NCBI RefSeq assembly: GCF_947241125.1
Contig: NZ_OX365700.1
Coordinates: 3,916,461 to 3,940,460, forward strand
From: Nitrospira tepida
GTDB lineage: Bacteria; Nitrospirota; Nitrospiria; Nitrospirales; Nitrospiraceae
Direction: 5' to 3'
Length of the DNA: 24,000 bases
The translations under genes were made by a program, and so were the position numbers. Numbering within the stretch: position 1 is the first letter of the stretch; each line of letters begins with the position of its first letter. Under the pieces are notes generated by a model, which saw nothing but the letters and a program-made list of their open reading frames with translations, had not been told where the DNA came from and searched no databases. Below are positions 2,424 through 6,028 of the stretch, one piece after another.

Positions 2424-2644
2424 TTACCGGCCCTCCACGGCCATGTGCTTCAGCGCCTCGGTTGTGACGGGGGTCCCGCCGACGCCCCAGTCCCTTGAGG
2501 GGACCCCTTCGATGATGACCCAGGTCACGGGCCGCAACCCTTCTCCTTCAACCGACACGATCGCGTCCGTAACCTTGCGAATGAGTTCGGCCTTCTGCTC
2601 CGCGCTGAGATACCCACTGAGCCTTTCAATTGTGCGAGTGGCAT
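2424..2644 (-). pseudogene. 4-oxalocrotonate tautomerase family gene with a 1-nt deletion near codon 4
   Basis: ATG at 2644 (GGGAGGTG RBS) gives MPLAQLKGSVG..., which then runs into nonsense. The other frame, ending at TAA 2426-2424, reads TIERLSGYLSAEQKAELIRKVTDAIVSVEGEGLRPVTWVIIEGVPSRDWGVGGTPVTTEALKHMAVEGR. Joining MPL + x + TIERLSGYLSAEQK reproduces the spacing of the MPxxTxxxxxGxxxAEQK tautomerase N-terminus. The span is 221 nt (3n+2). Confidence 0.75.
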
Positions 2645-2716
2645 GCGCTCACCTCCCTTCTGAATTGAGATAGAAACCTGGTTCTGGGCTGATCGCTCCA
2701 CAACCGGCCGCAACAA

Positions 2717-3382
2717 TCACCTCCAGCCCCCGCGCGCAAAGAAGAGTCCCCGGTGGATGTCACCGATACTGACCATGCCGACGAGCGTGCCGCGATCCAC
2801 GACCGGAATCCGTCGCAAGTTCTTGAGCCCCATATACGACGCGGCCTCAAGGATGGGTGTCTCCGGCGAGACGGTCAGCGGGTTGCGGACCATGATCTCT
2901 TCGGCCTTCTTCGTCAGCACCTCGGGATCGTTCTGCTCCATCTCGAGAAAGTCCCGGCTGCGCACCGCATCATGAATGTAGTCGCCCAGGAGCCTGTCCG
3001 ATATTGCCGTTCGTGACGACGCAAAGGAGGTGCGGTCAGATGCGAGGCCGCAGGCCCGGCAAAACCGCAGGTGTATTCGCTGGAATCGGGACCCATTGCA
3101 ATCCCGGAGCAATGGGTGCCCCGGATTGTTTCGGGCTGAGAACGACGCAGATGGCCGCAGATCGTTCGCCGCAGTAGACAGGTCATGTCGGATAGGCTCC
3201 CAGTTGGGGTACATCGGCAGCATCACGTCGCGCAGAGTGACGACGCCGAGCAATTCGTGATTGGCGTTCACGATCGGAATCGCGCCGCAATGCCAGCACA
3301 ACATTTTGACGACGATGTCCCGCACGTGGTCCGCCGACGTCCCCGTCACCACTCCGGTGGACATCACTTCATGGATTCGCAT
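2717..3382 (-). CDS. CBS-domain pair protein carrying a 70-codon MITE-derived insertion in the inter-CBS linker
   Basis: N-terminal CBS domain: MRIHEVMSTGVVTGTSADHVRDIVVKMLCWHCGAIPIVNANHELLGVVTLRDVM. C-terminal CBS domain: AEEIMVRNPLTVSPETPILEAASYMGLKNLRRIPVVDRGTLVGMVSIGDIHRGLF. I chose the start at 3382 (GGAGG 5 nt upstream). The middle 70 residues are encoded by the repeat element at 2990-3199. Confidence 0.8.
   Translation of the reverse strand: MRIHEVMSTGVVTGTSADHVRDIVVKMLCWHCGAIPIVNANHELLGVVTLRDVMLPMYPNWEPIRHDLSTAANDLRPSASFSARNNPGHPLLRDCNGSRFQRIHLRFCRACGLASDRTSFASSRTAISDRLLGDYIHDAVRSRDFLEMEQNDPEVLTKKAEEIMVRNPLTVSPETPILEAASYMGLKNLRRIPVVDRGTLVGMVSIGDIHRGLFFARGGWR
2986..3203. mobile_element. 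MITE (210 bp, 2990-3199) sharing terminal inverted repeats with the IS at 3639-5252, flanked by CCAG/CCAG
   Basis: The left end GAGCCTGTCCGATATT (2990-3005) matches the reverse complement of the IS right end, GAGCCTGTCCGACATT. The right end ATGTCGGATAGGCTC (3185-3199) matches the reverse complement of the IS left end, AATGTCGGACAAGCTC. Similarity continues inward (GACATGACCTG vs GACATTGACCTG). The 4-bp direct repeat CCAG lies at 2986-2989 and 3200-3203. The element has no coding capacity of its own. Confidence 0.8.
3079..3122. repeat. Palindromic unit copy a (centre of the MITE)
   Basis: Stem ACCCATTGC (3091-3099), loop AATCCCGGA, stem GCAATGGGT (3109-3117). The whole 44-bp block GCTGG..GGGACCCATTGCAATCCCGGAGCAATGGGTGCCCC closely matches the reverse complement of 5571-5612. 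Confidence 0.8.
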
Positions 3383-3497
3383 GGGAGCCTCCATTCTCTC
3401 CGCTAAGCGTGTTCACTCGACGCCGGTCCTGCCGGCGCACCGGTTCGTGCAGGGTCCGGCCTAACCTGTATTATTCATGAACGCTTCTGCTGCTTAA

Positions 3498-3525
3498 GCC
3501 CATTGCAACGGACGAGCAATGGGTC
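3498..3525. repeat. Palindromic unit copy b
   Basis: CCCATTGC (3499-3506), loop AACGGACGA, GCAATGGG (3516-3523). Confidence 0.75.
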
Positions 3526-3543
3526 CAGCGCGTGGCGACTGCC

Positions 3544-3604
3544 GGGTACCCGTTGCCGGGGTACCCATCGCTCCTCTTGCAATGGGTCGATCTGCAACGG
3601 GTGC
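3544..3604. repeat. Nested pair of palindromic units (c-outer enclosing c-inner)
   Basis: Outer arms are ACCCGTTGC (3548-3556) and GCAACGGGT (3594-3602). Inside them, inner arms ACCCATCGC (3563-3571) and GCAATGGGT (3579-3587) have one C/A mismatch and a 7-nt loop. Each left arm is preceded by GGGTACCC. Confidence 0.7.
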
Positions 3605-3634
3605 AACGCGACGAACCGTCATGAGTAATGCAGG

Positions 3635-5256
3635 CTAGGAGCTTGTCCGACATTGACCTGAGCACAGCATGGGCATTCCGGTTAATCCCATCTACGCACA
3701 GCTACAGACGGATTGACCTGGCGACTTTCGACTACCCCTGGGTTTTCCGCTCCGCCTTCCGGCTTCTGCCCAAGGCCCGCAGCCCCTCGCCGGGGCGTTG
3801 GCGACGATGGCGCAGGGCAGTCCAGAGTTTGAGCACATTATGCGTGGTACAGATGAGCGCCCATTCCCCGCGCACCTGCCGCATCCCGCGCAACAAGAAC
3901 TGTCGATAGCCGCGGCCCTGCTTGATCTGGCCGAAGACCGGCTCGACGATCGCTTTGCGCCGGGCGTAGAGTCGTCGTCCGCGTGTGGTCCGGAGGGTGC
4001 GGCGCATCCGATCCGCCACCGACAGGCCCGCTGGCGGTCGGCCCCGGGGCGCGGCGGGTATCGCCTGGCTGTGGCGGTGGCGATCCGGCGGGATGAGTGG
4101 CCGACACCCCAGCGCCGTGAGGGCCGTGACGTTCGCCTCGCTGAAATAGCCCGCATCCATACTCACGGTCCGCGGGACCTGACCGGTCTGGGCCAGTACC
4201 TGGGTCAGCATCGGCTGCGCTTGCTGCTTGTCATTCGCTTCATCGGTGACGTCGGCCGCGACAATGATCTGCGTCCTCGCATCGACGGCCGCTTGGCAGT
4301 TGTACCCTTGGACGACGCTCCCCTTGGCGTTCGACGCCGGCATAATCCGGCTCTCGGGATCCGTGAAGTTGCGCTGCGCCTTCGGATGGGGCACCGGGCT
4401 GGGGGGCTGCGGCGGCCGTCCCCGGCGCGGTCTTTCTGCCTTGCGCCCCTCGTGTGCCGCCTATGTGAGGGCGGCCTCCGCCTGGGCCTCCTGCTCCAGC
4501 ACCGCCTTGGCCGCCCGAATGGTCTCCAGCCGTTGCTCCCGGCGCGCCAGTTCGGCGGGCAGTTCATCACCCCGCCGGTCAGGGCCATACGCCGCATCAT
4601 CCCGCGCATCCGCCGCCTCGGCCTGCGTCAACAGCCGCTGGACTTCCGCCGTGAGCCGCGCCTCTTCCGTCACCATCCGTCCATAGCTCATCGCCTTATG
4701 CTTCGACGCATTCGCCTTGATCTTCGTCCCATCCAGCGCGATATGCCCCAGCTTGACCAAGCCCGCCCGCTGGCAGAGTTTCAGGACCTGCACAAACAGA
4801 TCGGCCAGCGCCGTCAGATGCTGCTTCCGAAAATCACTGAGGGTCCGGAAATCCGGCCGCTGATTCGCCGCCAGCACTCGAAAGGCCACATCCTCCTCCA
4901 ACTTCCGCGCAATCTGCCGCGAGGCCGGAATCCCCACGGCATAGGCATAGAGCAGCACCTTCACCAGCAGCTGCGGGTGATACGGTGCCGTGCCGCGCGT
5001 CACCCCACCATAGGTCGCCAGGATGGGTTGGAGATTCAATTCCTCCACCAGATCAGCCAGGAAGTACGCCAGGTGGTCTTCCGGCAACCAGTCGCGGGGT
5101 GACGGCGGCAACAGCCACAGCTCATCGGGATCATAGGGACGAAAGGTCCGAGTCGTCATCACGCAGCCTCCTCGCTCATCACGATGCTGCATGGCTGATA
5201 CACGAGTCAGAGCCTGCACACAAGTGCGTTGGGGCTAATGTCGGACAGGCTCCTAG
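3635..5256 (-). mobile_element. IS element, IS1182/IS5-superfamily (1614 bp, 3639-5252) with CTAG/CTAG flanking repeats
   Basis: Terminal IRs are GAGCTTGTCCGACATT (3639-3654) and AATGTCGGACAGGCTC (5237-5252), 15 of 16 complementary. CTAG lies at 3635-3638 and 5253-5256. It has one transposase reading frame. The size fits the family. Confidence 0.85.
3732..5159 (-). pseudogene. IS1182-family DDE transposase interrupted by one in-frame TAG (codon 233 of 475)
   Basis: Track ORFs 4461..5219 and 3732..4394 are in the same frame (4461-3732=729). The only break is TAG at 4463-4461: ...EQEAQAEAALT*AAHEGRKAERPRRGRPPQPPSPVPHPKAQRNFTDPESRIM... N-terminal motifs are LPEDHLAYFLADLVEELNL, RQIARKLEEDVAFRVLA and LDGTKIKANASKHKAMSY. 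The C-terminal half (QGYNCQAAVD...DAGYFSE...) is the catalytic DDE part. Start is ATG 5159 with GAGGAGG 7 nt upstream. Confidence 0.85.
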
Positions 5257-5447: not shown

Positions 5448-5524
5448 GGGGCGTCTCCTACCTCGGGACATCCTCAATCAGCCGTGGGAAGAGGTGATCG
5501 TTTCGACCATGCTTCCCGCCTTAG

Positions 5525-5815
5525 CCCACATTATTCATGAACGCTTCTACTGCAACCGCCGATACACCGCGGGGCACCCGTTGCTCCCAGATTGCAACGG
5601 GTCCCTGGCCAGCATGCGAAGTCGAAGGTAACGTGCATCTCCGCCGCGAGATAATCGAACGCGGCGGTTCAAGCAAAGCTTGGTATGGCGGGCAGGCTCG
5701 CCCCTCAAGGCCTCAACATACTGTTTCAAGTATGCCTCCGTCCTTCGCAGCTCCGCTTGCCCGTCTCGCCTGGCGTCTTGTCGGTTTCGTCACGAACCGT
5801 CATCAATAATGTGGG
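5525..5815. mobile_element. Second-family MITE, copy X2 (291 bp) flanked by TTAG/TTAG
   Basis: TIRs: CCCACATTATTCATGAACG (5525-5543) versus the reverse complement of the right end, CCCACATTATTGATGACGG (5815-5797). The direct repeat TTAG lies at 5521-5524 and 5816-5819. The right copy contains the stop codon of the gene at 5816-6028. It contains palindromic unit d and a second hairpin, CCGCCGCG-N11-CGCGGCGG (5641-5667). Confidence 0.75.
5571..5608. repeat. Palindromic unit copy d
   Basis: ACCCGTTGC (5576-5584), loop TCCCAGATT, GCAACGGGT (5594-5602). It is inverted relative to copy a and carries a G:C pair where copy a has A:T. Confidence 0.8.
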
Positions 5816-6028
5816 TTAGGCGGCCACGAGCTTTGTCATCAGAGGGCTGGAGGCTGTGAGAGGCTCCGGCGCCTCGGTTGACCGCTTCCTGTTTTTGAGA
5901 ATCGTCGCATCAATGATATTGCCGCAGAGCAGGCAACGATACCCATTCGCGCAGATCTCGCCGTTCGTCTCTTGCAGATCACAAATCTGCTCGCCGACCA
6001 TCAGGCCATCGCATCGTTCGCAGGTCAT
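5816..6028 (-). CDS. Small zinc-ribbon protein (70 aa), function unknown
   Basis: MTCERCDGLMVGEQICDLQETNGEICANGYRCLLCGNIIDATILKNRK... has CxxC ... CxxC. AAGGAGG lies 6 nt upstream of ATG 6028. Confidence 0.65.
   Translation of the reverse strand: MTCERCDGLMVGEQICDLQETNGEICANGYRCLLCGNIIDATILKNRKRSTEAPEPLTASSPLMTKLVAA

Follow-up and report, generated by a model that had tools for sequence, protein, structure and literature searches.

A MITE with IS1182-type ends in the linker of a Nitrospira CBS-pair gene: more likely a plain gene disruption than a new segment of protein

Intragenic MITEs have been described in several bacteria and include ERIC, BOX, QMITE1 and QMITE2 of Coxiella, the MITEs of Anabaena and the Correia elements of Neisseria (PMC10969869, PMC3184786, PMC5896051). 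Both in-frame fusions of MITEs to genes and disruptions that depend on the strain are established (PMC10969869, PMC5896051, PMC3184786). The RPE of Rickettsia are, according to a summary, recurrently inserted in frame into many unrelated genes, where they encode a conserved peptide (Ogata et al. 2000, 2002, per PMC10969869).

Here we describe a MITE in Nitrospira tepida, found in a window of 24,000 nucleotides (the whole stretch of DNA that was analysed, to which all coordinates refer unless a contig is named). It lies in a gene for a CBS-pair protein whose reading frame remains open across it, and the original prediction, made from the sequence alone, had raised selection to keep the protein as one possible reading. 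We find that the MITE has, most likely, simply disrupted the gene and has not given it a new protein segment.

The CBS ORF occupies 2717-3394 on the minus strand, encodes 225 aa and is open across the MITE, with two stretches that match the CBS motif (Pfam PF00571, E 5e-22). The ATG at 3394, from which it is listed, lies upstream of the Met at 3382 with which orthologues begin. The 5' part of the gene (3203-3382, minus strand) encodes CBS1, Met1-Asn60 in orthologue numbering, and the 3' part (2717-2986, minus strand) encodes the linker helix and CBS2, ending in WR and a stop instead of CEAAS and a stop. The segment at 2990-3199, bounded by the inverted repeats GGAGCCTGTCCGATAT and ATGTCGGATAGGCTCC, corresponds exactly to residues E66-L135; this correspondence, the open frame and the two CBS matches had all been predicted correctly. 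A protein search gave 1288 relatives, and the best 120 of these were considered: they are Nitrospira/Nitrospiraceae CBS proteins of ~146-180 aa, mostly 153 aa, with the exception of the 224-aa insert-bearing protein P0001, in agreement with the expected insertion into the linker of a protein of roughly 150 aa. None of 11 aligned orthologues, which read ...LPMYPNY/GDYIHD... (the slash marks the insertion site), contains the MITE segment, and 80 orthologous metagenome loci show a continuous match with no break at this site. In all, the segment is missing from about 100 orthologues. Since they lack it, it was inserted; that the linker is ancestral, an alternative which the original prediction had raised against itself, is ruled out.

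The limits of the MITE (GGAGCC...GGCTCC) were set by comparison with 14 other copies at 2989-3200 on the minus strand, a length of 212 bp that makes up codons 65-136 of the CBS ORF by read-through. An insertion had been correctly recognised in the predicted 210-bp element of 70 codons at 2990-3199; the limits and the net gain, which is 71 codons, had not. The left terminal inverted repeat, GGAGCCTGTCCGATATT (2989-3005, plus strand), was identified by its match to IS ends. The right one, GGAGCCTATCCGACATG (3184-3200, minus strand), is one base short, with a gap at 3184/3185: alignment with the family copies shows CATGAC here against an otherwise invariant CATTGAC, and this loss of one T removes a TGA from the CBS frame. 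At 15-16 of 16 bases the MITE ends are identical to those of a nearby insertion sequence of the IS1182 family (3638-5253), and five IS-end matches were observed in the window against 0.35 expected by chance, so that the predicted sharing of terminal repeats is borne out. The label "IS-derived" holds for these ends and fails for the interior, since the similarity between MITE and IS covers the terminal 16-18 nt only and the MITE interior is unrelated to the IS. The element is shorter than about 300 bp and has no transposase coding capacity, and only read-through frames cross it. At the RNA level it forms a long hairpin (-88.9 kcal/mol, z = -3.9), a property to be expected of MITEs. A scan of 2600-3700 found no promoters or terminators and gives no sign that the MITE brings either. 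The view that it is a non-autonomous element which could be mobilised by an IS of the neighbouring type is supported.

The terminal-repeat pattern was scanned in one genome per species (GTDB representatives, the source genome not being among them), and 14 further copies of 211-220 bp were found. Half of them belong to four Nitrospiraceae MAGs and have a homologous interior and lengths of 211-214 bp; the other seven come from one Elusimicrobia MAG and combine the same ends with a different interior, which suggests that related IS1182-type transposases may mobilise unrelated cargo in a distant phylum. The Elusimicrobia copies (MAG MGVA01; L004, L006, L009, L010, L012, L013 and L016) are 211-220 bp long and have the same 16-nt ends and TA/CTAG flanks. 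Family copies L007, L015 and L017 are situated between genes or just upstream of genes. The literature searched contained no specific description of Nitrospira MITEs or of IS1182-derived MITEs, and the one match was on Pseudonocardia contigs. We could not find this family described, and it would be a previously undescribed IS1182-type family of Nitrospiraceae with a TA duplication and a preference for CTAG.

Orthologues without the insertion, proposed in the original prediction as the way to define the true duplication, were found. In a 98%-identical relative (P0002; contigs L001 and L002) the empty site is AAC TAC GGC; L001 reads ccccaacTACggcgac, which can also be written ccccaacTACggcgactac, and the window counterpart is ccccaacTG[GGAGCC...GGCTCC]TGggcgactac. 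The window has thus grown by a net 213 nt (71 codons) over the empty site of L001, and the protein changes from Tyr to Trp and acquires 70 residues plus one extra Leu. The sequence obtained by removing the element, PNW/LGDY, had been taken for a normal linker; it is not the ancestral one, because the empty site accounts for the Tyr to Trp change and the extra Leu, and both L001 and the orthologues have PNY/GDY.

As the flanks of the family copies show, insertion duplicates a TA dinucleotide, in many cases one that lies within CTAG. The TA is kept on both sides in 7 of 15 copies and on at least one side in 11 of 15, and decayed forms among the copies are CA, TG or AA. Both copies of the duplication have decayed in the window. 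At 2987-2988 the plus strand has CA in place of the family TA and the adjoining base of the old Tyr codon is gone (empty AACTACGGC versus filled ...GGCTCC TG GGC); at 3201-3202 it has CA, which is TG on the gene strand, and the expected junction TAG has become TGG (Trp). CCAG is indeed present on both sides, at 2986-2989 and 3200-3203, as had been noted, and its possible role as the target duplication is refuted by the TA rule of the family. Judging by these flanks, the CCAG pair is decayed TA with adjacent bases and not a 4-bp duplication, and the MITE would have entered the TA of the Tyr codon TAC, TA being the true duplication at the L001/L002 empty site. A VSP-repair-type change of CTAGG to CCAGG was considered for the TA to TG step and rejected: it fits one junction only, after an assumed prior deletion, and the other junction does not fit.

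The original insertion was rebuilt from the family consensus (213 bp plus TA). This rebuilt allele, ...MYPN-stop-EPVRH-stop..., adds 215 nt and is out of frame, with a TAG at the junction and a TGA five codons (15 nt) further on. The stop codon TAG of a tatC-like ORF on L007 (ORF 3966-4748, stop 4746-4748 of that contig) consists of the TA duplication and the first G of the MITE, an example of the kind of junction stop that the original CBS insertion is predicted to have had. The present allele differs from the rebuilt one by TAG to TGG at the junction, by the T lost in the terminal repeat and, at the other junction, by a C missing from the old Tyr codon, the last accompanied by a silent A to G change. 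Together the three changes give +213 nt without stops, which resolves the puzzle of the 214-bp offset between the CCAG copies and confirms the suspicion that later indels had altered the frame. The junction peptides of the read-through ORF are …MYPNWEPIR… and, at the other junction, …AISDRLLGDYIHDAVR… (TAISDRLLGDYIHDAVR). No unmutated intermediate allele (TAG junction, TAC kept) was found among the cluster members and the 80 metagenome loci, and we infer, rather than observe, the order of the three reopening mutations.

Structure prediction, which had been suggested as a check on whether the insert loops out of the fold, was carried out with AlphaFold (103 sequences). Both CBS halves reach a pLDDT of ~90 and residues 61-136 fall below 50, so that the insert is predicted to form a disordered external loop outside the CBS pair. 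A search of 5.8 billion proteins with the insert peptide returned only nine short ORFs without Pfam domains. The proposed role for a Cys-containing segment finds no backing here, the insert being predicted as disordered and its peptide not being found inside other real proteins. Translation of the window ORF, if it occurs, would yield a CBS pair from which 76 disordered residues loop out, and nothing indicates a function for this loop. The parallel with the RPE of Rickettsia, drawn in the original prediction, holds as a single case and does not extend to recurrence in unrelated genes, because the insert peptide is absent from other real proteins.

All filled alleles have identical junctions and the same T loss, and the identical junctions occur in nine independent contigs (Logan and ENA assemblies, different samples). 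In the 90% cluster of the insert-bearing protein, in-frame 224-aa forms are present in three other assemblies (L003, L023 and L024); with the window, the in-frame allele is found in four independent assemblies. Frame-broken alleles that encode 105 aa plus 77 aa are found in L018-L022, five contigs from five samples. The two states differ in a palindromic unit of 36 nt nested in the MITE (3087-3122, delimited by alignment of alleles and family copies), which encodes GHPLLRDCNGSR. It is replaced by 7 nt in L018-L022, a net loss of 29 nt that breaks the frame, and the presence or absence of the unit decides whether the CBS ORF is open. The 7-nt version is also seen in family copies L008 and L015, and so represents a genuine variant, not a collapsed assembly. 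In family copy L017 (567-780 of that contig) a similar unit lies 12 nt away, in place of six other bases. The unit recurs in the window at 3499-3523, 3564-3586 and 5577-5601 with the core CCCRTTGC-N-GCAAYGGG. It is a G+C-rich imperfect hairpin with several copies, always in non-coding repeat contexts, and is nested inside two unrelated MITE families. This double occurrence, together with the present and replaced alleles and the offset in L017, points to an independently mobile or convertible module, which may move or convert between MITEs.

The second of these families is represented by an unrelated MITE-like repeat at 3456-3639 (ends CCTAACC..ATTATTCATGA), which holds two palindromic units and has the IS inserted at its end; a further copy lies at 5516-5820. 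The ends of this repeat can be written CCTAACCygyATTAYTCATGA, and the termini of the copies are 82-83% identical while their lengths differ. Contig L001 breaks inside this repeat. The IS1182-family element has entered the 3456-3639 copy of the repeat at a CTAG in its end; the IS is 1616 bp long, lies on the minus strand at 3638-5253 and has TA flanks within CTAG. Its transposase frame (3732-5219, minus strand), with DUF772 and DDE domains, is interrupted by a single in-frame TAG at 4461-4463. The two halves score 194.5 and 169.6 bits against NF033551 (profile positions 1-230 and 243-346 plus a further stretch), each below the 270-bit cut-off only because the TAG splits the frame. Unless its transposase frame is read through at this stop, this copy of the IS has probably lost its activity.

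The CBS gene carries a second lesion, which the original prediction had missed. Relative to L001, L003, L018 and L024, the window has a 152-nt deletion at the 3' end of the gene, with its junction near 2725/2726; the last five CBS codons and the native stop are gone along with most of the intergenic region, and CEAAS has become WR. Directly downstream of the CBS gene lies a frameshifted gene of the 4-oxalocrotonate-tautomerase family (2424-2644, minus strand). One base has been lost between 2621 and 2622, in codon 10, which converts AAAGGACTC to AAAGGCTC, and the window copy is evidently a pseudogene. The frameshift is common to the window and L018/L021, and the latter have in addition a change to Ser of Pro1, the N-terminal proline that is catalytic in this enzyme family. 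The tautomerase is intact in L001, L002 and L024. Lesions in close relatives, together with a lack of expression, had been named at the outset as what would speak against a kept protein, and such lesions were found: L018-L022 are frame-broken, the window has its 3' deletion and the tautomerase is a pseudogene.

Among 19 empty-site orthologues the median dN/dS is 0.07. Changes on the MITE-bearing alleles were polarised with L001 and outgroups and amount to ~14 non-synonymous versus 4 synonymous ones, a pN/pS of ~1. An omega of 0.07 is rejected for these alleles (P = 5e-8), with P = 8e-5 for 0.15 and P = 0.01 for 0.3; omega 1 is compatible, and the 95% interval is 0.35-4.7 on small counts. Comparisons of very close strains are known to inflate pN/pS. 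Three genes that neighbour the CBS gene on the same contigs have 15 non-synonymous versus 22 synonymous changes, and comparison of the MITE-bearing CBS alleles with these genes gives a Fisher P of 0.01 for all alleles and a marginal 0.06 for the same five haplotypes. Six replacements affect residues that are invariant in 19/19 outgroup sequences: R30W and Y81D in the window lineage, V24D, L45R and T104A in the in-frame L023, and V130A in L018/L021. At 3297-3302 (CBS codons 29-30) AGCCGG has become TGCTGG, Ser-Arg to Cys-Trp within the conserved SRHCG motif, in the window, L003 and L024 only. Since the insertion the CBS gene appears to have been under no detectable purifying selection. In a simulation of neutral evolution that started from the rebuilt insertion and applied as much change as was observed (10 substitutions, two one-base indels), an open in-frame read-through arose in only 0.8-3.3% of trials, which makes the reopening somewhat unlikely by chance.

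The original prediction held that restoration of the frame implied selection to keep the protein. In its full form this reading has a needed gene in which three junction changes were fixed for restoring the full-length CBS-pair protein, the 71 MITE-encoded residues looping out of the Bateman fold as in the RPE insertions of Rickettsia, so that the window strain and the strains nearest to it would have a working protein; the surplus of amino-acid replacements would be compensatory or slightly deleterious polymorphism. The low frequency of neutral reopening speaks for it, as do the three reopening changes common to every filled allele, which must have arisen early, the in-frame allele in four assemblies, the well-predicted CBS domains with an external loop at the linker position and the intact tautomerase of L024. 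However, all intermediates would be null, and selection could not have guided three steps through them. The sister strains re-broke the frame and persist in five samples, invariant residues have changed in in-frame alleles too, and the window copy has neither its native C-terminus nor an intact operon partner. The change of TA to TG is not unusual, given that the duplication has decayed in about half of the family copies, and the window was picked out precisely for its open frame. With pN/pS near 1, changed invariant residues and frame-broken sister alleles, the evidence that the protein was kept by selection is weak, and we regard such a rescue as unlikely. A bolder version, in which a free-living nitrifier took up the MITE into a protein, three early compensatory mutations were fixed for rescue of the CBS gene and the 36-nt unit (net 29 nt) served as a recombinational on/off toggle, seems to us quite doubtful.

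The low constraint would also fit a CBS gene that was dead before the MITE arrived. A -1 frameshift at the Tyr codon (AACTGGGCGAC) would have made it a pseudogene, and a 214-nt insertion would have restored the frame by accident; CCAG/CCAG (or CA/CA) would then be a true duplication, and no other scenario makes the two flanking copies an exact duplication. Yet it postulates a pre-insertion allele without TA for a family that inserts at TA (the 11 and 7 copies of 15 given above), and the ancestral site is C-TA-C. No frameshifted empty allele was seen among ~120 protein matches (the best of 1288) and the 80 metagenome loci, and the T loss in the terminal repeat is still needed to remove the TGA. 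We consider this history very improbable. An assembly chimera, or an original linker of a protein subfamily, has nothing in its favour beyond the uninterrupted ORF; the identical junctions in nine independent contigs, the absence of the segment from all 11 aligned orthologues, and ends and an interior that belong to a repeat family otherwise located between genes exclude both, and the probability left to them is negligible.

The explanation we prefer, and judge to be reasonably probable, is that a MITE knocked out a dispensable CBS gene in the ordinary way, that the frame was fortuitously reopened in some haplotypes and that the two-gene unit is decaying. A non-autonomous IS1182-type MITE would have landed in the linker between CBS1 and CBS2 of a Nitrospira gene for a 153-aa CBS-pair protein, at the TA of the Tyr codon TAC. 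The event would date to a recent ancestor that a set of closely related strains have in common. With a TAG junction stop, a TGA 15 nt further on and a frameshift, the clean insertion must have knocked out the gene. Three small later changes (TAG to TGG, one T lost and one C lost) would then happen to reopen a 71-codon read-through, a reopening that we infer was not driven by selection. The CBS gene would be in the course of being lost together with the downstream tautomerase: some strains would have re-broken the frame through the swap of the inner palindromic unit, and the window strain would have had its CBS 3' end deleted and its tautomerase frameshifted. The data themselves show the insertion and its empty site, the TA rule for the duplication, the series of alleles, an apparent relaxation of constraint and the lesions nearby. 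Several points stand against the knock-out explanation, namely the 0.8-3.3% frequency of neutral reopening, the four assemblies with the in-frame allele, the intact tautomerase of L024, the inflation of pN/pS in close strains, the small counts and the marginal P = 0.06.

Should the read-through protein be functional, the locus would document something rare outside obligate intracellular bacteria, the conversion of a mobile repeat into part of a protein, with intermediate alleles still in nature. As the evidence stands, it serves mainly as a clean, dated example of a MITE knock-out followed by decay of the gene and its operon partner. It also provides a caution: an uninterrupted ORF across a repeat does not show that the gene is functional.

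The locus resembles the RPE in that a short palindromic mobile repeat lies in a coding gene, the frame is kept and the peptide is predicted outside the fold (PMC10969869). It differs from them in being one case, with an insert peptide not found inside other real proteins and with the other copies examined being intergenic; moreover, the rebuilt CBS insertion was out of frame with stop codons, and constraint on the host gene appears relaxed. Likenesses are also seen with described intragenic MITEs: a TIR-bounded, non-autonomous element of ~200 bp that matches an IS in the same genome, a short target duplication, presence that depends on the strain, and fusion or truncation of an ORF. As in the enhC/QMITE2 case of Coxiella, whether the product is full-length or truncated depends on an indel within the element. 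What sets the Nitrospira element apart from described intragenic MITEs is its host, its IS1182-type ends with a TA duplication (neither this host nor such ends were found described in the searchable literature) and the nested second palindromic module. With the IS1182 family (NF033551) it shares, through the neighbouring IS, 16-18 nt termini and the TA/CTAG target; unlike that IS it has no transposase and no internal similarity. The 36-nt unit, finally, is like REP/BIME palindromes in being a G+C-rich imperfect hairpin with several copies in non-coding repeat contexts, and differs from them in being nested in two different MITE families and in replacing 6-7 nt at its site.
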